From: a virus
Taxonomy: Duplodnaviria > Caudoviricetes
Length of the DNA: 27,566 nt
Virus record (IMG/VR): IMGVR_UViG_3300031949_000140
Coordinates: 1 to 27,566 of that record
Reading direction: 5' to 3' (one strand)
Part shown: positions 2 through 26,032 of the stretch, piece after piece
Numbering within the stretch: the first letter of the stretch is position 1
Layout of the letters: every line of letters starts with the position of its first letter
Notes under the pieces: generated by a model
Seen by the model: only the letters and a program-made list of their open reading frames with translations
Database searches by the model: none
What the model was told of the DNA's origin: nothing
Position numbers and translations under genes: made by a program

Positions 2-1489
2 GCCACTGATGTCAGCGGACTCAAGGTCAACAACGGCGAACTTCTTGCCGTCAGTCTTCCGGAACAACGCTCTGCCGGCCGAGCCTTCCCCACCGTTCTT
101 GCCTTGCACAGGAGCAAGCAACTGTTCGGTGTATGCAAGAACTGATCCAAGCAGGTGTTGCAACGCCTCGATGCGAATGGGGACCTTGAGGTCAAGCAAC
201 TGCAGCATAGGTGCAAACGCCATGCGGATACCCACGCCGGTGTTGGTGCCCGTTATGTTGCCAAATGCTGCATCGTTAAGGAATGAGAGATGGTGAATCG
301 CTTGGATGTAACGGTCGAGCAACCGCTCCACGGCATCGGGCACAGGCTGCCAATCCATTGGACCCAACTTCTCCTCCAACCCAATGGGAATGACAGCGCC
401 AGTCTCAAACGCAATGGCGGTCACATCCTGCTGAGGCTCATCCGACGCATACACCAGCGGTTTCTTGATGTGCAACCTAATCTCGGTTGCACTGTCACTC
501 AACGTCTCGTTGTAACGACGGTTGAGCGACTTGATGGCGTCAATGTCACTGCACGTGCCCTGCCACGTTGGGTCAGCCTCACCTGCAAAGATGTTACTGA
601 TGATCCAGAACGGTGGGCGACCCCACAAGTGCTTGCTGTGCTCCAGCAGCACAGCAGCTGTCTTTCCGCTCTCAATGCGGTCACCGAATCCATGTGGCCC
701 GCCACGCTTCTCCGTGGTCGCTACGCGCACGGTCAACGCAATGAGGTAGTAGTCATCGTGGTCCCAGTAGTGCAACAGCGTGCAAGTGGGTTCGACCTGG
801 TTGGCATCCAGCGACTCCAAGCCGCCTGTTGCTTCCAACTGCTTGCCGTAGCGCTGGCGGATCTCCTCGATAAGGCGGTTGCGATCCGGTCGAATGACGT
901 ACCAAAGATCCTCATTGGGGTCATCGTAACCAGTGAACACAGGGAAGAAGTCTTCGGGAGGAACATTGCGGAAGCGGAAAGAGGAACGCGAGCCACCTGG
1001 CAAAAACGAGTACTCGTGCACGAGGCGGTTGTCCTTGCCTTCACCCATCATGCGCACTTCGGGCGCGGTGTCGTGCTTCGTAAACACAGCCTGAATCACA
1101 CCGAAGCCCACCTTACATGCATTGTGCTCTGCACGGCGGTACGCTTTCATCAACTGCGGGAGCATCGACAACAGATAGGCCTCACGACGCTGAGCGGACA
1201 ACCGTGCATCTGGAGCGGCGGGCTCTGGCACCTGCAGCCTGAAGCCTTTGGATAGCACAGCGGCGTACTTCAGGACCACAACGCGTGAATAGTTCACCGT
1301 GATGGTCTCTTCGGTGCCACCCTCGCCCCCAGCATTGGAGTCTGTAGCGATCTCACCACCCTCGCTGTCTAGGGCCCACTGCTTGCCATCGAAGAAGTCC
1401 TGGAGCGTGAGGATGTTGCCGTTACGGGCGGAATACCGTGTTTTTAACTCGATGTATAGACTTTCTAACTCTTCTGCGGTCCGCTGCAT
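2..1489 (-). CDS. Phage portal protein (partial, runs off left edge)
   Basis: Manual translation from ATG at 1489: MQRTAEELESLYIELKTRYSARNGNILTLQDFFDGKQW...TITVNYSRVVVLKYAAVL. The frame appears open to the window edge (ends ...KFAVVDLESADISG), which would explain its absence from the ORF track. It lies directly after terL and has an SPP1-portal-like N-terminus. Confidence 0.75.
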   Translation of the reverse strand, partial: MQRTAEELESLYIELKTRYSARNGNILTLQDFFDGKQWALDSEGGEIATDSNAGGEGGTEETITVNYSRVVVLKYAAVLSKGFRLQVPEPAAPDARLSAQRREAYLLSMLPQLMKAYRRAEHNACKVGFGVIQAVFTKHDTAPEVRMMGEGKDNRLVHEYSFLPGGSRSSFRFRNVPPEDFFPVFTGYDDPNEDLWYVIRPDRNRLIEEIRQRYGKQLEATGGLESLDANQVEPTCTLLHYWDHDDYYLIALTVRVATTEKRGGPHGFGDRIESGKTAAVLLEHSKHLWGRPPFWIISNIFAGEADPTWQGTCSDIDAIKSLNRRYNETLSDSATEIRLHIKKPLVYASDEPQQDVTAIAFETGAVIPIGLEEKLGPMDWQPVPDAVERLLDRYIQAIHHLSFLNDAAFGNITGTNTGVGIRMAFAPMLQLLDLKVPIRIEALQHLLGSVLAYTEQLLAPVQGKNGGEGSAGRALFRKTDGKKFAVVDLESADISG

Positions 1490-3122
1490 TTTCCACTCTC
1501 TTCTGAACCACAGTCAGGAAGTGAGGTCCGTTCGGACCAGAACGCGCTTCGTGTTGCCCAACGTGACCATTGCGCCACTCACGCGCCGTAGTGGCCTGCC
1601 GCTGTGCATAGTGTGGCAACGGAAGTTTGTGACCTCGCACAGCACCGTACCGAGCGATGAGGAGGTACCACAGCGCCTTGAGTGCATCACACGGGAGACG
1701 CGCGTCCGGCACCTCGGATGGGAGGAAGTCACTGCCAACATCGGTCTCTTTGCGTCTGTAACGTGGAAACTCGTATCTGAGACCGTAACCTTGTCCACGA
1801 CCCTCCCAGTCTGCAATTTGCAGGTGTGGTGTGTGAATGAACAACGCATCCATGTCCACCGCTCCTGCACTCACGTCACCAACCGCTGGACGCTCGAAGT
1901 ACAAGAAACTGTGCAGGCGACGAATGCCTTGTAACTGCGGTATCTTGTCTGACTTCAACACAACGCCAGCACGTGACAGCCATCGACGCTTGCTGTCTGG
2001 CGCCTCGTGGTCGATGGCGCCCCCGCGTACATCGCGCCACCACGGCCGAGACATGCACACATCGATAATCTGCTCATCAATGAGACCTCGTTCCCACACC
2101 TCGTCAATAACGTTGCAGTAATCAATGCGGTCGTCCGGATCAGGGTCGGAATCAGACCAGAACTGACATGCCACTACAGCGTATGGATGACCACCGTCGG
2201 ACGGGTCGACACCTAGATAGACCGGCACCCCAGGTTTATAACCACATTGGTTCGCAGAACCAACGTGAATGGATTCGAGATAGTCTCGGAAGACAAGATT
2301 GACGGGCGGAGTAGGGACTCCACCGCAGCGCTCCTCAAAGAGACCAGGGACTCGGGAGTATACGCGCTCAAGTCGCTTGATTTCTGGATCATCGCGTCCG
2401 CCAGGATAGACGGCTAGATTAGACCACGAAGGAACCGAGAAACTGCGCCCACGAAACTCAAGATTGTTGCCCTGGAACTCACGAAACAACTCAGGAAACC
2501 AGCCGGTAGAGCCTTCAAATGTGCCCGAGCATACGAGCCATCCTCTGGTCTCACCCAGGCGACCGAAACACTTGAGAAATAGTGCATACGGCACGGTCGC
2601 AGCCTCAACAACGAGAATACCGTCCGGAGCGTCGGAGCGGACTTTGGAAATATCAAATCCGGACTTGGTTTCAATGATCTGTCCTGTCTTCAGTCGCATC
2701 CGCCACTGGTTGCGCATGGGCATTGACACTTCACGCTTGTCCACAGCGCCCAACTGCACAAACCACTGCAACGCGTACTCGAACTCTTTGTGTGTGCCTT
2801 CGTAGTCCTCGGCAATGATCCAGAAAAGGCGGCCCCACGGTGCACGCGTAACCAACTCCATTGCGGAGTAGTCCGACTTGCCACCGCGCTCACCGCCCGC
2901 TACGAGTTTGACTCTTGCTCGGCTTCTGAGTGGAGCGGCTTGGGCTGCACCGGGGCGTCGTCCAATGGTTCTGAGTATGTGGTCCTGCTGCTCCCAGGTT
3001 GGTCCGCCAACGATTCGGTCGGTCCAGGGCCAATCTCCATTGGCGTCTGGTCCTCCCCAGGCTGCTTCACCACGCCACTTGTGGCTGAAACCTTGGTCAA
3101 CTGATTGAGTAACATCACCCAT
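1422..3122 (-). CDS. terL: Terminase large subunit
   Basis: Q-motif-like PTWEQQ, Walker A AGGERGGKS, Walker B-like GILVVEAA, motif III CSGTFEG, RNase H-like nuclease YLGVDPS, late acidic motif CDALKALWY. Confidence 0.9.
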   Translation of the reverse strand: MGDVTQSVDQGFSHKWRGEAAWGGPDANGDWPWTDRIVGGPTWEQQDHILRTIGRRPGAAQAAPLRSRARVKLVAGGERGGKSDYSAMELVTRAPWGRLFWIIAEDYEGTHKEFEYALQWFVQLGAVDKREVSMPMRNQWRMRLKTGQIIETKSGFDISKVRSDAPDGILVVEAATVPYALFLKCFGRLGETRGWLVCSGTFEGSTGWFPELFREFQGNNLEFRGRSFSVPSWSNLAVYPGGRDDPEIKRLERVYSRVPGLFEERCGGVPTPPVNLVFRDYLESIHVGSANQCGYKPGVPVYLGVDPSDGGHPYAVVACQFWSDSDPDPDDRIDYCNVIDEVWERGLIDEQIIDVCMSRPWWRDVRGGAIDHEAPDSKRRWLSRAGVVLKSDKIPQLQGIRRLHSFLYFERPAVGDVSAGAVDMDALFIHTPHLQIADWEGRGQGYGLRYEFPRYRRKETDVGSDFLPSEVPDARLPCDALKALWYLLIARYGAVRGHKLPLPHYAQRQATTAREWRNGHVGQHEARSGPNGPHFLTVVQKRVENAADRRRVRKSIHRVKNTVFRP

Positions 3123-4167: not shown

Positions 4168-4502
4168 CTCGTTCGTGGGTTGCGTGTTGTGGTACGCCAA
4201 TGCTTGCACGCAGGATACAGCAATCCGTGGCGTGCGTCAAGTGTGGATGTCGCCATGGTTGGGTCGATCTTTGCGTGGTTGAGTGCTGGTTGTCGGGCGA
4301 TCGTTCTGTGAATGTTGAGATTTGTTCGTGGTTGTGGTTGTCGTATATGTTTCAGTAGAGAGGTGCATATATGGTTATTGCAAAGGTAATAAATAGACAT
4401 GTATAGGTTTGAAGCAGTTATATGCGACTCTCGTATGTCCTGATTTACATATATGACAACCACAACTAGTAAATGAATGTGATGGTGTTTTATGGGACAT
4501 TT

Positions 4503-4637
4503 TCAACGTTTCAGCGGGTATCTTTCAACGTTCCCACATTCTTATCAACGTTTAGGCGGTGATGAACGGCGTATTAGAGATCGAACTACGTCGTATTAGA
4601 GGTCACGCGGTGTCATATTAGAGATCGAACCACGACG
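4503..4637. repeat. Phased direct repeats (iteron/operator-like)
   Basis: TCAACGTT at 4503, 4525, 4545; TATTAGAG at 4572, 4594, 4616 (exact 22-bp period; copies 1 and 3 extend to TATTAGAGATCGAACYACG). Confidence 0.8.
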
Positions 4638-4650
4638 TTGACATTGCACC

Positions 4651-4679
4651 TTGACAATGTTGAGACGTTATCGTATGAT
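4651..4679 (+). promoter_or_regulatory. Sigma70-type promoter
   Basis: TTGACA (4651-4656), 17 bp spacer, TATGAT (4674-4679); SD AAGGAGG before ATG 4718. Confidence 0.8.
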
Positions 4680-4717
4680 ATGCAAAGAAAGCAAGAAGAA
4701 AGCGAAAAGGAGGCAAA

Positions 4718-5281
4718 ATGCCGCGACAGGTTGGAGTGCAACTGCCAGTTGAAACACAGGAAGCAATCGTGAAGGCCTACGTTGAGACCAAGACACCAGT
4801 GATGGCTATTGCTTTTGACAATGGTACCTCGGTTGCTACGGTCTACAAGGTGCTGTATATGTGGGGCGTTGAGATAAACCGTGACCGCAGCGGGTTCACA
4901 CGGAACCCCATAGCGGAGCAGATGGTCATTGCGCTCTATCAAAAGGGCGCTCAGATCATTGACATAGAGACTGCGACTTCTCTGTCGCCTGCCACGATAT
5001 ATGGTGTGCTGCGGAAGCACGGCGTGGAGTTGCGACGCATGAAGTCTGCCCAACGTCTTGAAGTATTGAAGCAGGCACGGCGCCGGCGCACGGTGTATGA
5101 AATTGCTGAGGAGACTGGTTTGGATATTGCAAAGGTCCGTGCGGTCATCAAGGCTGGCGGTCTGGAGTTGTACGTTGCAGATCCAGCGAGTCTTGTAAGC
5201 AACCTTGCGGCGGTTACGGTGGTTGCAACAGTTGCAACAGTTGACGTGGAGGACGTGGATGGCAAGGAAACTCTACCCTGA
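4718..5281 (+). CDS. DNA-binding protein with three tandem HTH-like repeats
   Basis: Repeats IAFDNGTSVATVYKVLYMWGVE / IETATSLSPATIYGVLRKHGVE / IAEETGLDIAKVRAVIKAGGLE; strong SD. Confidence 0.8.
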   Translation: MPRQVGVQLPVETQEAIVKAYVETKTPVMAIAFDNGTSVATVYKVLYMWGVEINRDRSGFTRNPIAEQMVIALYQKGAQIIDIETATSLSPATIYGVLRKHGVELRRMKSAQRLEVLKQARRRRTVYEIAEETGLDIAKVRAVIKAGGLELYVADPASLVSNLAAVTVVATVATVDVEDVDGKETLP

Positions 5282-6047: not shown

Positions 6048-6364
6048 AAGTGGCCACTGGTTTTGTGGTTTCCATGGAGACACTTACGGAGACACATGTA
6101 TATCTACATATATATCATATATGTATATGTATCTTATCTGTATTTCTCCCGAACGCTGAATTATGTAATGTGTAAACGCATGTGTGCGCACACACGCAAC
6201 GTGCAACGTGTGTTGTGCATGATGTCGTGCGATGTGTGCACGTCACGCGCAACGCGCGATGTCGCAACGATGCATGACGTGTGACGTGTGTATTGCATGA
6301 TTAATTTTGTGCATCCATGCAACACGCACTGCTTGATCCCCCCTCGTTGCAACATCACACAACA

Positions 6365-6428
6365 TGACGAATGTCATACGAAACACATGACATTCGTCAC
6401 ATGACACACACGTACGATGTGATATGAT
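6365..6428 (+). promoter_or_regulatory. Early promoter with upstream inverted-repeat operator
   Basis: Perfect 13-bp IR TGACGAATGTCAT-N9-ATGACATTCGTCA (6365-6399); -35-like ATGACA 6401-6406; extended -10 TG-A-TATGAT 6420-6428. Confidence 0.7.
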
Positions 6429-6513
6429 GTGTGCATAACGAAACACATCACGCAACACACGACGTAAACGTGTGAAAATCAAAACGTGATGTACAAACGA
6501 CAACAAACACAAC

Positions 6514-6822
6514 ATGTCAAACAACACGACGAAACGCGATGTTACATCACACGACAACATGACAACATTCAACGTCAAATGTCGCAACGTTGCGCACGCG
6601 CAACGCATCATCGAATTGTTGCACACGAACGATGTTGAAACGTTCGTGTATCGTGCACAATACGATGCCGAACGTGCGAACATCGTCAACACGTACAAAC
6701 GCATGTTGCACGACATCGCAATCGCGCAAATCAAATCGCGCAACGATGATGACAACAACGTCGTTGACGCGATGAAACGTGACGTGATCGCGTATGCACG
6801 CGACAACAACATCACGATGTAA
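6514..6822 (+). CDS. Early protein, VYR-family paralogue 1 (no Gly/Pro/Trp)
   Basis: Aligns without gaps over ~55 aa with 7864-8154 (FNV...V..AQ.II...VYRA.Y..E...L....IA..K); flanked by promoter and terminator; start may be ATG 6514 or 6559. Confidence 0.8.
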   Translation: MSNNTTKRDVTSHDNMTTFNVKCRNVAHAQRIIELLHTNDVETFVYRAQYDAERANIVNTYKRMLHDIAIAQIKSRNDDDNNVVDAMKRDVIAYARDNNITM

Positions 6823-6845
6823 CACGCGCACATACAATTGAATAC

Positions 6846-6892
6846 GACAACGTAAACACACATCGACAACACGATGTGTGTTTTGTGTTGTC
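6846..6892 (+). terminator. Probable intrinsic terminator
   Basis: AAACACACATCG-acaaca-CGATGTGTGTTT perfect 12-bp stem (6854-6883) running into a T-rich tail; outer GACAAC/GTTGTC pairing. Confidence 0.7.
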
Positions 6893-7000
6893 ACACGCAT
6901 CACGCGCATCACGCACACGCACACGCACACATTGCGCGTGCACGCGCATCAACGCGACATAACGCATGTTCACAAATTCACAATCGAACAAATGATTCAG

Positions 7001-7064
7001 GACGAATGTCATATAAAACACATGACGTTTATCACGTTCAATTATGCGTCATTCGTTATACAAT
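7001..7064 (+). promoter_or_regulatory. Second copy of the operator/promoter; probably yields a leaderless mRNA
   Basis: GACGAATGTCATATAAAACACATGACGTTTATCAC closely matches 6366-6400; -10 TACAAT at 7059-7064 lies 6 nt before ATG 7071. Confidence 0.6.
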
Positions 7065-7070
7065 ACGTGC

Positions 7071-7388
7071 ATGAACGCGCACGTTTCATCGAACGACAAC
7101 GACACGCGCACGCGCAAACGCAAACGTGTTAACGTTGCATTCATGCAACGCATCGCACATGATGACGCGCAACACAACGCATCACGCGATGACACGTTGC
7201 GTGCAACGTTCACATGCAAATGTGATGTGTGTTCACACACGTATGACGCGAATTATGTGCGCGTGTTTGCACACGTGCGCGCAGTTGACAAACGTCAACA
7301 TGCAATGTGTGAACGTTGTTTACGCATTGCGCGTGATGACAACGACGTTAACACGTTCATGCGTGTTAACGGTTTGATGTATGCGTGA
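7071..7388 (+). CDS. Early protein with putative Zn finger (CxCxxC...CxxC)
   Basis: FTCKCDVCSH...AMCERC; no Pro or Trp and a single Gly at the zone edge; ATG sits at the predicted TSS. Confidence 0.65.
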   Translation: MNAHVSSNDNDTRTRKRKRVNVAFMQRIAHDDAQHNASRDDTLRATFTCKCDVCSHTYDANYVRVFAHVRAVDKRQHAMCERCLRIARDDNDVNTFMRVNGLMYA

Positions 7389-7416
7389 AGTTTCAACACA
7401 CACGAGGAGGTGTGAA

Positions 7417-7821
7417 GTGATATACATCAGCAAGAACGGCAAGGTGGACAGGTCGCGCACGTTCGAGGACCATGCGGCACGGCGCGATTGGCATCAAGCG
7501 AGTGGGCACACGTGGTCAACGGAAGGTTGGTGTTGGGTGGACGCTGACGGCAACAAGTATCGCACGTTCGTCGAACGCGACGAGAAGTGGTACGTCGTCA
7601 AGTACTTCAGTGAAGACAAGCGCAACAGCGTGATGCAAGATCGGTACGAGAAGGGGGAGTTGCAGCACGCAAAGGGGGACGCGCGAGCAGGAAGCGCAGA
7701 CGGTCGCGCCGTAGTGTATCGCGCGTCGGTGCAGTTGGGTCGCGTGTGGTATGATACGGTGTGCGAGTATCGCAACGGCGTATACAAGTCGTTGTCGCGC
7801 AGCGGCAAGTGCAGGAGTTAG
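7417..7821 (+). CDS. Hypothetical early protein (no Pro)
   Basis: Strong SD GAGGAGG 7404-7410 then GTG 7417. Confidence 0.75.
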   Translation: MIYISKNGKVDRSRTFEDHAARRDWHQASGHTWSTEGWCWVDADGNKYRTFVERDEKWYVVKYFSEDKRNSVMQDRYEKGELQHAKGDARAGSADGRAVVYRASVQLGRVWYDTVCEYRNGVYKSLSRSGKCRS

Positions 7822-19346: not shown

Positions 19347-19793
19347 ATGTACGCAAAGATAACACGAGAATACACGTTCGACGCTGCCCACCTGCTGCCA
19401 GGCTACAACGGCAAGTGTGCTCACCTGCACGGACACACGTATCGACTGCTCGTGCAAGTATCAGGCGAGGTGAGCGACGAAGTTGGCAACAGTGATGACG
19501 CCATGGTCATGGACTTCGCTGACCTTGACGCCATCGTCAAACCACTTGTCTCCAAACTCGACCACCGCTTCATTGCAAAAGGTGACGAGTGGCCGTGCAA
19601 CGCTGCACGACTGGCCGGCGTGGATGACGTGTTCTACATGGGCCAGCGGACCACTGCAGAGAACATCGCCGGGTGGTTTGCTCACTGGGTCAGCAAAGGA
19701 TTGTCGACTATGGCTCCCAGCAGCGAGTTCGACACGAACTGCATCGTGTTTGAGACACCACGCAGCAGCGCCAGCGTGCGGTGGGAGGGTTGA
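19347..19793 (+). CDS. queD: 6-carboxy-5,6,7,8-tetrahydropterin synthase
   Basis: FDAAHLL...CAHLHGHTY, MVMDF, LDH, TTAENIA, FETP. Confidence 0.93.
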   Translation: MYAKITREYTFDAAHLLPGYNGKCAHLHGHTYRLLVQVSGEVSDEVGNSDDAMVMDFADLDAIVKPLVSKLDHRFIAKGDEWPCNAARLAGVDDVFYMGQRTTAENIAGWFAHWVSKGLSTMAPSSEFDTNCIVFETPRSSASVRWEG

Positions 19794-19794
19794 C

Positions 19795-20520
19795 ATGCAC
19801 ACGTACAACATCAACGAGGTCTTCACGTCGTTCCAGGGAGAGGGTGTGCACTGTGGTGAGCAAGCAACATTCATCCGCGCACAGGGTTGTCCAGTGGGCT
19901 GCCCGTGGTGCGACAGTGGACCGAACTATCACCCGGACGAACCGCTCTACGACGCCGTGGGGCAACGTGTGGAGGGCGTCAGCCACGTTCCGTCTGCAGG
20001 CAACACGTGGCCAGGCGTGGGTGGCGCAAAGATGACCGAGTACGATCTCTGTGCCCGCATACCCACTGACATACCACGCATTGTCATCACCGGTGGCGAA
20101 CCAGCGCTGCAGGACTGGGACGACTTCATCAACTGCTGGGAGTCCTACGTCGGGCACCATCGCACGGTCATTGCGTTGGAGACAAGCGGCCAGTACGAGT
20201 GGCGTGGCAGTCGCTGGCCTGACTGGGTGACCGTGTCACCGAAGTGGTCCGGCAACCCATGGCACGTGGAAGGCGTGTACTGGACCTACGTGGACGAGTT
20301 GAAGTACGTGGTGGACGACCGCTTCGATGACTCCATCGTGGCCGAGCACCTTCGCCAACTGCGTGAACTATGTCCGCAACGCGGCATGCCATACATCGTG
20401 CTCATGCCTGAAGGTGCTCCGCCGAACCAAGGGACGACCGAGCGCACGTTGTCGTTCCTCAAGAAGCACCACGACTGGCGTGCGGGACCACGACTGCAAT
20501 ACGACTGGAGGGTGAAGTGA
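19795..20520 (+). CDS. queE: 7-carboxy-7-deazaguanine synthase (radical SAM)
   Basis: EVFTSFQGEG, FIRAQGCPVGCPWCD, VITGGEP, ETSG, TVSPK. Confidence 0.93.
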   Translation: MHTYNINEVFTSFQGEGVHCGEQATFIRAQGCPVGCPWCDSGPNYHPDEPLYDAVGQRVEGVSHVPSAGNTWPGVGGAKMTEYDLCARIPTDIPRIVITGGEPALQDWDDFINCWESYVGHHRTVIALETSGQYEWRGSRWPDWVTVSPKWSGNPWHVEGVYWTYVDELKYVVDDRFDDSIVAEHLRQLRELCPQRGMPYIVLMPEGAPPNQGTTERTLSFLKKHHDWRAGPRLQYDWRVK

Positions 20521-21092
20521 AACCACTAATAGAGCCGCATGTCGCCATTGGGTATGCACTGACGAAAATCTTCGGCGCAACGTGGGCCGAGGGTCAGCAT
20601 GCACGAGACACAGCACAACGCATACTCAGGTACTGGCAGGCACTTGTCCCACCTCCAGTTGCGTCATTGGACAAGGCGTTCACCACCTTCAAGAATGAAC
20701 CACGTGCAAAGCAGATGGTGGTGTGCTGTAACATTCCATTTCACTCTGCCTGCGCCCACCACCTCCTGCCGTTCGAGGGTCATGTCCACATCGGCTATAC
20801 ACCGGATGCTGTGCTCTGTGGGCTGTCGAAGTTCCCACGTGCCGTGAACCACTTCGCACAGCGTCCACAGATCCAAGAGTTGATGGGGCGTGAACTGGCT
20901 GACTACCTCTATGCCAAACTGGAACCACACGGTCTGGGCATACGCGTAGTTGCCGTACATACCTGCACCACCTGCAGAGGCGTTGTTGCACCAGGCACCC
21001 TGATGGTCACAGACATCATGCTTGGCGACTTTCAGCGTTACGAAACCCTCAAGCAGGAGTTCCTATCCATGATTCGAGAAAGGACACCGTGA
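20517..21092 (+). CDS. folE: GTP cyclohydrolase I
   Basis: SACAHHLLPFEG, GLSKFPR, RPQIQE, HTCTTCRGV. Confidence 0.93.
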   Translation: MKPLIEPHVAIGYALTKIFGATWAEGQHARDTAQRILRYWQALVPPPVASLDKAFTTFKNEPRAKQMVVCCNIPFHSACAHHLLPFEGHVHIGYTPDAVLCGLSKFPRAVNHFAQRPQIQELMGRELADYLYAKLEPHGLGIRVVAVHTCTTCRGVVAPGTLMVTDIMLGDFQRYETLKQEFLSMIRERTP

Positions 21093-21511
21093 TGTCGTAC
21101 ACACCTGACGAGAAGGCGCTCATCGAGCGCGAGATGGCTGCATTCTGGACGAACTACACCGGACTGCTCAACGATGCCAAGCACATTGCAGAAGAACGCG
21201 GTAAAGAGTCCGGTGACAACACGCCTCCCTGGCACAAGATCTCCATGCGTGATGGCGTCATCACACTGCTGCGAATGAAGATCGAGCGCCTGGTTGACTG
21301 TACACCGGATAAGTGCATCGAGGAGTGCAAGGACATCATCAACTACGCGGGCTACCTCGCCGCATACACGTTGATGGTGAACAACATCCACCCGCCGGTT
21401 GTCACCAGCCAGGGCACACCGCCTGCAGTGAAGTTAGAGCCTGTAGACCAGACACCACATGCAAGTATCACTGCTGCACAGGCACTGGCTGCAAGAGAGG
21501 TGAAGAAATGA
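21089..21511 (+). CDS. Helical protein, DUF1599/nucleotide-modification-associated-like
   Basis: LRMKIERL...EECKDIINYA pattern, located inside the modification cluster. Confidence 0.5.
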   Translation: MMSYTPDEKALIEREMAAFWTNYTGLLNDAKHIAEERGKESGDNTPPWHKISMRDGVITLLRMKIERLVDCTPDKCIEECKDIINYAGYLAAYTLMVNNIHPPVVTSQGTPPAVKLEPVDQTPHASITAAQALAAREVKK

Positions 21512-22266
21512 AACTGGCCATCGTTGCGTCCCCGTCGACAGTGAAGTACGCCCGCCCCCTCGCCGGTGGTTACCACATGGCGCTGGCACACCTCATCCGT
21601 GACGACACCAGTTATCGTGAGTGGTACAACACGCGGGCGAGTTGGATGAACAGCGAAGTCATCCTTGACAACGGAGCGGCCGAGTTCGGCGTGGCAATGC
21701 GACCAGAGGAACTCCTCAGGATTGTTCGTGACTTCAAGCCAACTGTGTGGGTGATGCCTGATGTCATCATGGAGACCGCAGCCACGATGTGGTACTTCCA
21801 CATGACGCTGACGCTGAAGGACTTGCCACTGCCATTCATGGTGGTTCCGCAGGGGCGCAACTTCTCTGAGTGGTTGGACTGCTTCAACTCCATGAGAGAT
21901 GCACTAACTGAGCGCAACATGACCGCGTGGCTAGGCATCAGCAAGTTCTGCTTGCGCCACACCGAGCGGCTGACCATCCTGGAGATGCTCGCAGGCAACC
22001 TGCCTTCGTGCTTCACACACGTCCACCTCCTCGGTCTAGAAGATCCGCAGGAACTGTTGAAGGCTGCACAGATGTACCCATGGGTGCATGGATGCGATAC
22101 ATCTACACCCATCGCCATGGGACTCAAAGGCTTGCGCTGTCAGGACTACACTACCAAGATCGACATGGATTGGAGAGAGCATCACATCGACGCGGGTGAA
22201 GATGCTCTCATCCGCAACAACGTAAACTACCTCGTGGAGTTGGCACGTGGATACCAGGCTAAATAA
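21508..22266 (+). CDS. dpdA: DNA guanine transglycosylase (TGT fold), DpdA-like
   Basis: ILDNGAAE, MPDV, VVPQG, HLLG, GCDTSTP motifs; adjacent to queD-queE-folE; ATG 21508 coupled to the previous stop. Confidence 0.75.
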   Translation: MKLAIVASPSTVKYARPLAGGYHMALAHLIRDDTSYREWYNTRASWMNSEVILDNGAAEFGVAMRPEELLRIVRDFKPTVWVMPDVIMETAATMWYFHMTLTLKDLPLPFMVVPQGRNFSEWLDCFNSMRDALTERNMTAWLGISKFCLRHTERLTILEMLAGNLPSCFTHVHLLGLEDPQELLKAAQMYPWVHGCDTSTPIAMGLKGLRCQDYTTKIDMDWREHHIDAGEDALIRNNVNYLVELARGYQAK

Positions 22267-22351
22267 GGCGGTGGTCTTCGTGCTTCAAGTCGCCATCCTC
22301 GTGGTGGTGTTCACCACTTGCTCGCTCATACTAGGGGGCTTCCATGGGTGA
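22247..22351 (+). CDS. Very small membrane protein (34 aa)
   Basis: GGAG then GTG; MDTRLNKAVVFVLQVAILVVVFTTCSLILGGFHG. Confidence 0.4.
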   Translation: MDTRLNKAVVFVLQVAILVVVFTTCSLILGGFHG

Positions 22352-22502
22352 CATCGTTGTTCTGGTCACGTTTGGCGGCTTCTTGATCTGTGCATACCTG
22401 GCAGGCAAGAAGAGATCCTGGACTGGCAAGTTGGTCATCCTCCTCATTGAACTGACAGCACTGGGAATGGTTCTGCAGTACGCAGGGTTGGTGTTGCCAT
22501 GA
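22344..22502 (+). CDS. Small two-TM membrane protein (52 aa)
   Basis: Manual translation MGDIVVLVTFGGFLICAYLAGKKRSWTGKLVILLIELTALGMVLQYAGLVLP; ATGA overlap with the next gene. Confidence 0.55.
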   Translation: MGDIVVLVTFGGFLICAYLAGKKRSWTGKLVILLIELTALGMVLQYAGLVLP

Positions 22503-22789
22503 ACATCAAGCAGGAGGTTGCTGACTACATCACCGCGAAAACTGCACAGGGTAAGTGGACGACGCCACCTTTGCAGGATGCGCTGTGCTTCCTCGTGACC
22601 GAGGTGGATGAGGCGCTGGAGGCATACATGCGCACGAAGCCTGAGTACGTCCGCAACGACCCCACCAAGAAGTATGACCTGGGCAAGGAACTCGCGGATG
22701 TGGTGTTAATGGCATTCGTGTGTGCTCAGGTAGGAGGGTTCGACATTGAGACAGAACTTGCCATCACACTTAGCACTACCAGACGTTGA
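22499..22789 (+). CDS. MazG-like nucleotide pyrophosphohydrolase
   Basis: LVTEVDEALEA...KELADVVL (ExxE...ExxD). Confidence 0.8.
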   Translation: MNIKQEVADYITAKTAQGKWTTPPLQDALCFLVTEVDEALEAYMRTKPEYVRNDPTKKYDLGKELADVVLMAFVCAQVGGFDIETELAITLSTTRR

Positions 22790-23539: not shown

Positions 23540-26032
23540 GTGAACAAACATCCACTCGCCAACTGCACAGGCTGCCCGTACAAGGACCGTCCCTACGTTT
23601 CATCCGAGTTCAACCCTGGTGCAACATACAACGTAGTGGGCGAGTCTCCTGGGCGTGATGAGGCGTTCAACACTCACACACCCTTCACAGGCCCAAGCGG
23701 TGACCTCCTCTGGAAGACAATGGCACAGGCCGGCGTCAAGCGTTCACAGTGCAATGTGCTCAACGTCATTGCCTGTGCCCCTCCCGAGGCTGATGCTCCT
23801 GAGAAGCAACAACAGTTCGCCCCAAAGGGCCAATACGACGTTGACCAGACACGTGCAACCAAAGACGCAGAGACTGTTGCTTCCGAGAAGGCACAGGCAG
23901 CACAGTGTTGCAGTGGTCGTTTGCACGACGAGTTGTCGTGTACTACTGGCAACATCCTGCTACTGGGGAGGATAGCGCAGTATGCACTGTTGCCAGAGTT
24001 GGAGGGTGCAAAGAACACGCGCCTGTGCAGATGGGTGGAGCATAACGGACGCAATTACATCTACACATGGCACCCAGCGCATGTCTTACGCGCACCTGTT
24101 GAAGCACGCACCATGATGAACGGCATCCAGAAATACGTGCGCGTGCCTCCTGGACGCAAGTTGCCACCTGTGCCGGAACATCACATCGTGGTCTCACCAG
24201 GCCACCTGCACGGCCTGTGCAGCCTGTGGGAGCAGCGTAGGGCTTTGCAACTTTGCATTGACACCGAGACGGACCAGATAGACTGGCAGAACGACGACAT
24301 CCTGTGCATGGGCATCTACGACGGAATTAACATCTATGTAGTGCCCAAGTATGCGTTTGACTCGTTCAAGTATGGGTTGCCAGTGTGGGACGAGTGGTAT
24401 AAAGCACTTCACAGGTTCTTCTCCATTGACGCTGTATGGATCATGCAGAACGGAAAGTACGACCAACGCTTTCTTCGTGGCCAGTATGGTTTGCCCGCAC
24501 GCTGCACGTGGGACACCATGCTTGGTCACTACGCATGGGACGAGCGCAAAGGCACGCATGACCTCAAAGGCTTGTGTGCGTTCTTTTTCGATGTGGAAGA
24601 CTGGGAACTGCAGATGGCCGAGTGGATTGGCACATCACATGCCCACAATGCACGGTACAGCATCATACCTGCAGATAACCTTCATGCTTACGTTGCACAG
24701 GATGTGTTCTACGATTGGCATCTGAAGCAGGGGTTGGAGAAGTTGTTGAAGCGCGAAGGACTGCTTGAGTGGCCGCTACTCAACCTGCTCATGCCTGCAA
24801 ACGAAGTCCTGCTGGAAGCGGAGATCTTTGGTGCATATGTGGACACCGAGGCGCTCGATGAACTGTGGGTGCAGTGGCTGTTATGGCAGTGGGACGTGCG
24901 CGATGAGATAGAGGCAATGACGAATGGGCTAGTTGACAACCCAGCATCCACCGTGCAGGTGTCGCACTATGTATACGACATACTCGGGCTGAAGTTGCAG
25001 AGGCACCTGCCCAAGAAGTCACGCTGTACGGACGACGAGGTGATTGCACAACTCTTCGTGGAACTTGAAGAAGCAGGCAAGAAGGCACTGCACGCCTACG
25101 AGTTTCTGGTTACGCTTCGCCAGTTCCGTCGCATACAGAAAATGCGTGGCTCCTACGTGGAGCAAATCAAGAACTTCATGGATGAGCACAGGCGCGTGCA
25201 TCCTGAGTTCCTAGTGCACGGCACGGAGACTGGCCGTATCTCTGCACGCAACCCTGCCATCCAAACCATTCCACGCCCCAATGACCGAGAAGCAGGTCAG
25301 ATGGGCTCACACATCCGCAACCTGTTCATTGCACCACCTGGCTGCAAGTTGGTCAACGTGGACTATTCACAGTGCGAACTGCGGTTCGCTGCTCACGTGT
25401 CCGGTGACACCTTCCTACGTGAAGCGTACATTGCTGGGCGCGATCTGCACAGTGAGGTAACAAAGGGTGTGTTCGGGGAGGACTACACCGACGAGCAACG
25501 TCAGCGCATCAAGGTGTTTAACTTCCAGTTCCTCTATGGTGCAAAGCCAGAGGCGAAGTCGTATGCACGCGGTGAGTCCATTCCGCTGGATGTTGCCAAG
25601 CGCTTCGTTGACGGTTACAAAGCAACGATGGGAGGACTGCTGGTATGGCGCAACAACCAGGAACGCTTGATGCACAGTCAGCACTTCGTGAAGTCGATCT
25701 TCGGACGCCGACGAATGTTGCCAGTAATTACGATTGGCAACCGTGAAGAGGCGCGCAAGGTATCAATCAACGCGCCCATTCAGGGTGGTGCATCGGATCT
25801 CACACTCTTGGCAGCAATTGACATCTACAATGATCCATGGATGCGTGCAAAGGACGTGCATGTACTTCTGCCCATGCACGATAGTATTCTCCTGCAGGTG
25901 CCAACTGAGTACGCTGACGAGGTGGCAGACCGCGCGAAGCAGGTCTTCGTGGATGTGGCTGCCCGTTACATCAAAGACGTGCCATTCAAGGCGGATGCTA
26001 AGGTTGGCGACCGATGGGGAGACGTGAGATGA
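23540..26032 (+). CDS. polA: Family A DNA polymerase with N-terminal uracil-DNA-glycosylase-like domain and 3'-5' exonuclease
   Basis: UDG4-like CTGC, GESPG, PFTGPSG, HPAHVLR; exonuclease DTET, NGKYD, YVAQD; polymerase TGRIS, DYSQCELR, KVFNFQFLYG, HDSI. Confidence 0.93.
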   Translation: MNKHPLANCTGCPYKDRPYVSSEFNPGATYNVVGESPGRDEAFNTHTPFTGPSGDLLWKTMAQAGVKRSQCNVLNVIACAPPEADAPEKQQQFAPKGQYDVDQTRATKDAETVASEKAQAAQCCSGRLHDELSCTTGNILLLGRIAQYALLPELEGAKNTRLCRWVEHNGRNYIYTWHPAHVLRAPVEARTMMNGIQKYVRVPPGRKLPPVPEHHIVVSPGHLHGLCSLWEQRRALQLCIDTETDQIDWQNDDILCMGIYDGINIYVVPKYAFDSFKYGLPVWDEWYKALHRFFSIDAVWIMQNGKYDQRFLRGQYGLPARCTWDTMLGHYAWDERKGTHDLKGLCAFFFDVEDWELQMAEWIGTSHAHNARYSIIPADNLHAYVAQDVFYDWHLKQGLEKLLKREGLLEWPLLNLLMPANEVLLEAEIFGAYVDTEALDELWVQWLLWQWDVRDEIEAMTNGLVDNPASTVQVSHYVYDILGLKLQRHLPKKSRCTDDEVIAQLFVELEEAGKKALHAYEFLVTLRQFRRIQKMRGSYVEQIKNFMDEHRRVHPEFLVHGTETGRISARNPAIQTIPRPNDREAGQMGSHIRNLFIAPPGCKLVNVDYSQCELRFAAHVSGDTFLREAYIAGRDLHSEVTKGVFGEDYTDEQRQRIKVFNFQFLYGAKPEAKSYARGESIPLDVAKRFVDGYKATMGGLLVWRNNQERLMHSQHFVKSIFGRRRMLPVITIGNREEARKVSINAPIQGGASDLTLLAAIDIYNDPWMRAKDVHVLLPMHDSILLQVPTEYADEVADRAKQVFVDVAARYIKDVPFKADAKVGDRWGDVR

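Follow-up and report, generated by a model that had tools for sequence, protein, structure and literature searches.

Positions 6157-7388 of a 27,566-nt soil metagenome contig from a phage of the Caudoviricetes (IMG/VR record IMGVR_UViG_3300031949_000140, studied as a single sequence at its full length and referred to as the window) form a two-gene cassette in which guanine almost never follows a purine. By this rule, which holds on both strands, only C or T stands before G and only A or G after C, and it spans the non-coding parts and the codon borders as well as the genes. The rule is strand-symmetric, lies at the level of the DNA and is kept by selection. The phage encodes a DpdA-like DNA transglycosylase together with genes for 7-deazaguanine synthesis. 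The reading that we prefer, tentatively and without holding it to be probable, is that the zone is a modification-free cassette and that 5'-purine-G (RG; R, purine; Y, pyrimidine) would be the context in which the transglycosylase acts.

A 1.2-kb zone nearly free of purine-G steps

In 6158-7388 (1231 nt), AG was found twice, GG twice, CT three times and CC seven times, corresponding to observed/expected ratios of 0.02-0.09. These 14 occurrences compare with about 295 expected from the rate of 0.24 per position outside 6100-7400, in agreement with the initial annotation of this sequence, which had expected a few hundred and described the four dinucleotides as common elsewhere. Nine of them were confined to 6315-6343, a 29-bp island that had been annotated as 30 bp at 6315-6344. 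The remaining five were located at 6668 (CC), 6999 (AG), 7000 (GG), 7283 (AG) and 7371 (GG), exactly matching the manual count of five outside the island. The longest run free of these dinucleotides measured 33 nt outside the zone, compared with 331, 325 and 283 nt inside it; by a rough estimate, a gap of this kind is expected about 10^-33 times. The dinucleotide scan that the annotation had proposed was performed in 700-nt windows and gave minima of 0.01 for AG/CT and 0.02 for CC/GG.

The steps CG, TG, CA, AC and GT were enriched in the zone (1.67-2.11 of expectation), and AA/TT and GA/TC were neither enriched nor avoided (0.78-0.98). YR and RY steps, 462 of each among 1230, add up to 75% purine/pyrimidine alternation; since AA/TT and GA/TC steps are not avoided, alternation is not the selected property. 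Trinucleotides were present at 0.82-1.21 of the expectation from a first-order Markov chain on the 12 allowed dinucleotides. The constraint therefore truly lies at the dinucleotide level, and the zone is neither a repeat array nor low-complexity DNA, the latter as previously annotated. Iterons or another repeated binding word were considered and rejected, because k-mer maxima remained within the Markov-2 expectation, the exceptions being the operator word described below and, mildly, GCAACG. The G+C content is 47% in the zone and 56% in the contig.

The rule is maintained in diverged copies of the cassette

Contigs from three other soil studies (X2, X4 and X5) matched parts of the zone at 99-100% identity, with 6140-6265 and 7211-7399 lying outside the coverage of these contigs. 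The contig continues across both borders of the zone. The other runs show two indels, an insertion of 12 nt (CACGCGCACGCG) and a deletion of 16 nt, neither of which departs from the reduced alphabet. Both concern short repeats of the CACGC type at 6891-6932 and 7102, the length of which varies among soil samples.

Two further metagenome contigs, L003 and L004, were obtained by a scan with the ORF2 protein family (ORF, open reading frame; see below) and hold a diverged copy of the whole cassette. They are identical to each other at 1257 commonly aligned positions and one indel apart. Not a single forbidden dinucleotide was present in the homologous zone of L003 (992 bp) or L004 (1006 bp). The window and L003 differ in 409 of 1059 aligned columns (39%), and of the single substitutions that are possible, about 53% would introduce a forbidden dinucleotide. 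The absence of any break in L003 despite these differences demonstrates that the rule has been actively maintained over a long divergence. As a side observation, the gene after the zone in L003 (1243-1500) starts with a strong Shine-Dalgarno sequence, yet contains 2-8 forbidden dinucleotides per 100 nt, where about 20-24 are normal; the return to ordinary composition is graded in L003 and has a sharp border in the window.

No match was obtained when the zone was searched at the nucleotide level against 50,697 phage records. Scans of IMG/VR with the flanking proteins, and with the ORF2 homologues P0003 and P0004, revealed no relative carrying a zone, and the six loci found in IMG/VR with the operator-promoter motif were all chance matches without one.

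The cassette encodes two conserved proteins

ORF1 (6514-6822, plus strand) encodes 102 amino acids without glycine, proline or tryptophan and is 47% identical to the product of L003 403-714. It is predicted to be helical, the model reaching a pLDDT of 73. ORF2 (7044-7388, plus strand) encodes 114 amino acids with one glycine, no proline or tryptophan, and a zinc-ribbon-like CxxC...CxxC motif. Its homologues are P0003 (122 amino acids, 56% identity) and P0004 (138 amino acids, E=2.7e-26), which represents a third lineage; both lack glycine, proline and tryptophan. All three family members thus do without proline and tryptophan and have at most one glycine, and the cysteines of the motif are conserved. 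Since GGN, CCN and TGG codons are impossible in the alphabet, these residues were dropped from the proteins. A Shine-Dalgarno sequence is likewise unwritable in it; both ORFs lack one, and their leaders are A- and C-rich instead. Selection on duplex DNA overrides protein composition and ribosome binding here.

ORF length was rejected as evidence for coding: the longest ORF in the zone has 215 amino acids, no longer than in Markov-1 random sequence (mean 148, 95th percentile 218). Because random sequence gives equally long ORFs, the case for coding rests on conservation. A long antisense ORF matches ORF1 in conservation, but only because the two overlap. Judged from sequence conservation, ORF1 and ORF2 are conserved proteins; the annotation had also counted two ORFs in the zone. 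Neither matched a family in Pfam or PHROGs or gave a usable fold or structure-atlas match, and no family reached the threshold in Rfam and tRNA scans of the zone.

A pair of dyad sites with a spacing of 23 nt stands in front of each ORF, and the same arrangement is present in L003. The first pair, ATGAC-N4-GTCAT at 6364-6377 and 6387-6400 (plus strand), recurs as the same pairs in L003. Allowing up to one mismatch, the window contains six copies of the dyad (1.17 expected), half of which are in the zone; the paired dyads are likely operators. The promoter-like site P1 (6401-6428, plus strand) consists of ATGACA, a 16-nt spacer and TATGAT with TG before the second hexamer, and matches the promoter consensus at 10 of 12 positions; ATGACA-N17-TATGAT stands at the aligned place in L003, after the first dyad pair. 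ORF1 is followed by a terminator-like hairpin (6854-6883, plus strand, -20.5 kcal/mol), and in L003 the corresponding position is taken by another perfect palindrome, of different sequence (-19.3 kcal/mol). The second dyad pair (6999-7012 and 7022-7035, plus strand) flanks TATAAA and lies in a repeat, D2, with 84% identity; CAGGAYGAATGTCATATAAAACACATGAC is also found at L003 247-275. Only one exception to the rule is conserved, the AGG of CAGGAYGAATGTCAT, which lies inside this second control element (6999-7035).

Compared with L003 and L004, the island at 6315-6343 is inserted sequence; it contains the only ATCCC of the contig and is identical in an independent run's contig (X2 record 1, 6301-6462). 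At its left border, the zone begins after a conserved AT-rich element (6091-6156) that aligns with L003 (about 100-152) and L004 and in which CT and CC are present and AG and GG absent. This element is strand-asymmetric, contains CATATA and ATCTG repeats and might serve as an origin, as a packaging site or as an upstream element of a promoter. At its right border, the zone ends with the stop codon of ORF2; the next gene (7404-7821, plus strand, GTG start at 7417) is of ordinary composition, and its GAGGAGG (7404-7410) follows 16 nt further on.

The phage encodes a 7-deazaguanine pathway and a DpdA3-like protein

The annotation had proposed a guanine-replacement system, and the corresponding genes were identified at 19347-22789, all on the plus strand. 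QueD/PTPS (19347-19793; 2.5e-28), a QueE-like protein (about 19795-20520; phrog_2076, 1.2e-24) and FolE (20517-21092; 5.8e-43), the genes of the preQ0/7-carboxy-7-deazaguanine pathway, are followed by a DpdA3-like protein (21313-22266) and a MazG-like protein (22499-22789). The DpdA-like protein scored 18.7 bits with the Pfam model DpdA, below the cut-off of 27; in BLASTP it matched CGPG_00065 of phiST with E=2e-13 and 26% identity over 138 amino acids. Its best phage matches are the "DNA guanine transglycosylase" of Flavobacterium phage immuto_2-6A (9e-10) and Cellulophaga phage phiST, and by sequence it is closest to the DpdA3 subfamily. No other G-directed DNA enzyme was seen on the contig. 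A dpdL gene, also claimed earlier, was not confirmed: neither 21089-21511 nor 19347-19793 aligned with phiST CGPG_00067, and a divergent DpdL is possible. No phage match was obtained for 21089-21511, and QueC gave no match in Pfam and PHROGs scans of the contig proteins.

Terminase and portal genes run leftward from about 3100 (2-3122), and an AT-rich divergent region lies at about 4200-4700. A strong promoter-like site (4651-4679, plus strand, 11 of 12 matches) precedes the rightward block, which is headed by a protein with two helix-turn-helix motifs (4718-5281, plus strand; Pfam HTH_7, 2.9e-08; phrog_1303); as a guess, this protein is a candidate binder of the dyad sites. The block continues with the zone, many small genes, an SNF2 helicase, a PD-(D/E)XK nuclease, a primase, QueD, QueE, FolE, the DpdA-like protein, MazG and PolA fused to a UDG-like domain. 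In this family A DNA polymerase (23540-26032), the N-terminal UDG-superfamily domain (6.2e-18) is followed by 3'-5' exonuclease and polymerase domains. Bacillus phage BSTP12 and Weizmannia phage Youna2 have a similar gene order. From its position and the host-type promoter matches, the zone would be expressed early.

Word avoidance outside and inside the zone

Expectations outside the zone were derived from 400 synonymous-codon shuffles of the contig outside 6100-7400. AGCT occurred once (position 656) against 79 expected and GGCC 73 times against 114, and GGGAT and ATCCC were both absent, with about 13 expected for each. A CviJI-type (RGCY) reading of the AGCT avoidance was rejected: AGCC/GGCT was normal (0.92), so that an AluI-type specificity is avoided rather than RGCY.

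GATC was present 72 times outside the zone against 98.6±7.0 expected, and nearly the whole deficit was found in YGATCR (7 against 29.0±4.2, a value that none of the 400 shuffles reached). Where one strand carries a 5' purine, 49 sites were found against 51.5 expected, and where both strands do, 16 against 18.5, so that these classes are at expectation. Thus GATC is depleted only where a 5' purine is missing on both strands, which lends some support to RG as the modified context. YGATCR made up 0.10 of the GATC sites in the window, compared with 0.23-0.52 in six other phages. The same lean was seen for GTAC (16 against 23.3, P=0.02) and GCGC (48 against 58.7, P=0.05), and palindromic hexamers outside the zone were at 0.63 of expectation when all their G are in YG context and at 0.85 when they contain an internal RG.

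Inside the zone, pooled for the window and L003, GATC was found once against 8.9 expected, ACGCGT not at all against 8.5, and all allowed palindromic hexamers together 54 times against 96.1±10.0. Because palindromes that the alphabet allows are avoided within it, the zone behaves as unprotected DNA. A generic stealth against all restriction sites was rejected, since 36 of 64 palindromic hexamers are still possible in the alphabet and ACGT, CGCG, GCGC, TGCA and CATG were at expectation in the zone. The depletion of RG/CY in the zone and of GATC, AGCT and hexamers holds against composition- and coding-preserving models. Overall, G seems to be protected when a purine precedes it, and the all-YG zone has the look of bare DNA that must rely on its sequence for defence.

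Some further biases were observed. CGTACG has a single copy, located inside the zone, and is absent outside (5.7 expected). TGCA (251 against 168.5) and CATG (135 against 108) are over-represented outside the zone relative to the synonymous shuffles, and CA/TG is at 1.38-1.44 of mononucleotide expectation genome-wide, the direction of the bias being the same as in the zone.

Comparison with other phages

The scan in 700-nt windows was extended to six phages: phiST, MW202455, BSTP12 (first 50 of 55.4 kb), Youna2 (first 50 of 52.9 kb), iggy and CAjan. No such zone was detected in any of them, the lowest ratios being 0.67-0.79 for AG/CT and 0.23-0.71 for CC/GG, where the window reaches 0.01 and 0.02. 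This includes one phage without annotated queuosine or DpdA genes.

In iggy, 99.75% of the modified G is reported to be in GA, according to the accessible text of PMC10484667. The non-coding stretch 59900-60628, upstream of a leftward gene block, contained 17 GA/TC against 89.3 expected (0.19). It is the lowest 700-nt window for GA/TC in the genome (mean 0.80, sd 0.14), and this ratio is below that of any other dinucleotide class anywhere in iggy; the other classes were at 0.73-1.47 in the same stretch. The five-fold GA/TC-poor end region of iggy as a whole (59450-60628 and 1-310) is non-coding and rich in ACCAGG-like repeats, and the part of PMC10484667 that could be accessed does not mention it.

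Possible causes of the rule

That the zone is a modification-free cassette is a tentative reading, possible rather than probable. The rule is strand-symmetric and concerns only the 5' neighbour of G, and therefore a process acting on G in duplex DNA fits. According to this reading, the DpdA3-like transglycosylase would act on G in 5'-purine-G context, and the two-gene cassette would be kept free of RG on both strands so as to escape the phage's own 7-deazaguanine modification. The zone would then be plain DNA. Host machinery could read its two promoter-operator units and genes without adaptation, directly from the modified genome after injection; alternatively, a plain zone would offer nothing to modification-dependent defence. 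In return, the zone would have to avoid restriction-type palindromes by sequence alone. The enzymes cutting AGCT, GGCC and GGGAT are assumed to be insensitive to the modification. Seela and Roeling reportedly found in 1992 that HindIII and PvuII still cut 7-deaza-G DNA. AluI and RsaI are described to cut the dG+ DNA of phage 9g in the sections of PMC5567051 that were available. DarT1-type guanine ADP-ribosylation was considered as another agent and rejected, as no consensus motif is known for it according to the accessible sections of PMC11543638.

The annotation had left open three options: that RG is the target and the zone free of modification, that YG is the target and the zone fully modified, or that host defence motifs are avoided. 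The first received some support, from the YGATCR deficit and from iggy, and the second is disfavoured by the avoidance of allowed palindromes in the zone. The YGATCR deficit, this palindrome avoidance and the parallel in iggy together favour the modification-free option over the fully modified one. Slightly more doubtful is the wider proposal that hypermodified phages keep a plain-DNA "ignition cassette", here with two genes and their promoters, operators and terminator recast in a 12-dinucleotide alphabet beyond the reach of the phage's transglycosylase, and that the genome sequence alone reveals a 5'-purine-G rule.

Several observations weigh against the modification-free cassette. The DpdA3 members studied replace all G regardless of context, as far as the accessible part of PMC10516641 goes, and the published DpdA motifs GA and GGC, in the portions of the literature at hand, are set by the 3' and not the 5' neighbour. 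The deazaguanine phages phiST, BSTP12, Youna2 and CAjan have no such zone. CAjan, for which GA and GGC motifs have been mapped, has no motif-poor control region either, its lowest GA ratio (0.50) being in a tail gene; the parallel seen in iggy thus holds in one of two phages with mapped motifs. The words most avoided genome-wide, AGCT, GGCC and GGGAT, all have G after a purine. The analogy to AluI is limited by the fact that only about 25% of G is modified in phage 9g (PMC5567051, same sections). The difference between the two hexamer classes amounts to only about 1.7 sd, and when stratified by reading frame the 5'-purine bias at GATC (z=2.35) is the third among about 60 tetramers and by itself no outlier. 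In MW202455 (MW202455.1), 1 RGATCY and 58 YGATCR were counted among 112 GATC, so that, by analogy, the flank-specific avoidance of GATC in the window could be ordinary host-enzyme specificity. The pattern in MW202455, an unrelated phage, looks like avoidance of BstYI-type sites. Finally, why whole genes and not just promoters need to be unmodified is unexplained by known biochemistry.

A rather unlikely explanation, though one to be taken seriously, is that the avoidance has nothing to do with modification by the phage and is directed at a host defence motif, such as an NGG/NAG-type or a CC- or AG-containing protospacer adjacent motif (PAM) or the target of a short-motif nuclease or nickase. 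The two genes, perhaps anti-defence genes, would escape targeting or damage before they act. Nucleases have shaped this phage heavily, as seen from the loss of AGCT, GGGAT/ATCCC and many hexamers, and GATC and ACGCGT are avoided in the zone as well. The absence of RG from either strand also means the absence of both NGG and NAG. Inverted repeats flanking a promoter are the arrangement of anti-CRISPR operons, and a promoter flanked by inverted repeats is found at each gene of the cassette. Genome-wide depletion of PAMs in phages has been published (PMC4246573, as far as its text was accessible). However, immunity of a local stretch pays only if the zone enters or acts first, and 1.4 kb of ordinary rightward genes precede it. 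ATG, a working PAM of type I-E systems, is abundant in the zone, TTC/GAA is not depleted, and the CC- and CT-rich island of 29 bp is tolerated. ORF1 and ORF2 match no known family, and no homology to known Acr or Aca proteins was found in Pfam, PHROGs and the fold and atlas searches, PADLOC and dedicated Acr libraries not having been searched.

It is improbable that the rule has its cause in the RNA, with transcripts kept free of Shine-Dalgarno- and anti-Shine-Dalgarno-like words and translated without a Shine-Dalgarno sequence, or in a special flexible or Z-DNA-prone shape of the DNA. The zone does stop exactly at the ORF2 stop codon, where the next gene opens with GAGGAGG; A and C predominate in the ORF leaders and 5' ends, where the AC-GT skew reaches 0.47, and the purine/pyrimidine alternation would suit an unusual shape. 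Yet the rule holds with the same strictness on both strands, and also in 6157-6400, upstream of P1, which is beyond a model based on mRNA, and no Rfam family reached threshold. Against shape, AA/TT and GA/TC are not avoided.

A fully modified window, in which DpdA would act on YG and every G of the zone would be modified so that the stretch is armoured, is very unlikely. Each G of the zone is in YG context on both strands, the most avoided words genome-wide would be unprotected in this case, and the zone is rich in ACGT, CGCG, GCGC, TGCA and CATG. But armoured DNA needs no avoidance of GATC, ACGCGT and palindromic hexamers overall, all of which is still seen in the zone; outside it, YGATCR and not RGATCY is depleted; the local depletion in iggy concerns the target motif itself; and weak selection against a single unmodified G does not predict zero occurrences in 992 bp. 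An assembly artefact, which the annotation had itself considered, or a context-specific mutation footprint such as deamination (C-to-T/G-to-A decay) is hardly credible and has only the oddity of the sequence in its favour, as the contigs of three other studies and two contigs with a diverged copy back the zone, TT, AA, TC and GA are not enriched, and both ORFs keep conserved protein sequences. What probability remains falls to causes that have not been thought of.

Significance and comparison with known systems

Over a kilobase, two of the ten base-pair steps of DNA are excluded so strictly that two conserved genes are deprived of glycine, proline, tryptophan and every Shine-Dalgarno sequence; as a footprint of selection acting on the DNA itself, this is unusually clean. 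If the zone marks the target context of a DpdA3-type enzyme, sequence rules of hypermodification would be readable from genomes, and modified phages would need unmodified windows, of which no description was found in the literature searched. An ignition cassette, if real, would imply that 7-deazaguanine in DNA hinders an early expression step or draws modification-dependent defence. If host defence is the cause instead, the zone would point to a system that reads the purine-G step, and the two small proteins would be candidates for first-acting counter-defence factors. Either way, a simple scan can be made for stretches free of one strand-symmetric dinucleotide class, or for proteins without glycine, proline and tryptophan. 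No published description of a motif-free window in DpdA phages was found in the accessible parts of the sources, nor of a local dinucleotide-free or PAM-free phage region in a literature coverage that mostly left out subscription journals.

In T7 and T5, the DNA that enters first carries host-type promoters and anti-restriction genes. The cassette resembles these leading regions in its host-type promoter matches, in the small genes of unknown function heading the block and in the lack of nuclease targets. It differs in that a position at the genome end is not suggested by the map and in that dinucleotides rather than particular sites are avoided. Morons and cassettes of the anti-CRISPR type combine a promoter, a small gene and a terminator, with inverted repeats at the promoter. 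ORF1, lying between a dyad-paired promoter-like site and a hairpin in a zone of lower G+C content than the contig, is similar to these; here, however, the helix-turn-helix gene lies upstream in another unit, and a reduced alphabet is no feature of such cassettes.

The avoidance of restriction sites and PAMs by phages, as described in the accessible text of PMC4246573, is alike in that selection purges phage DNA of short words. The known cases are genome-wide and partial and concern words of 4-8 bp, whereas here two dinucleotide steps are nearly excluded and only in 1.2 kb; unlike in known avoidance, the exclusion runs through coding sequence and costs the proteins their glycine, proline and tryptophan. 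The DpdA enzymes with a context-specific action, those of iggy (GA) and CAjan (GA and GGC), differ in that their motifs are set by the 3' neighbour, and the DpdA found here is nearest to DpdA3, which is reported, in what could be consulted, to replace all G. They share with the process considered here that it is directed at G, post-replicative and acts on duplex DNA with a neighbouring base setting the target, and in iggy, too, the genome has a stretch that is five-fold poor in its own motif.

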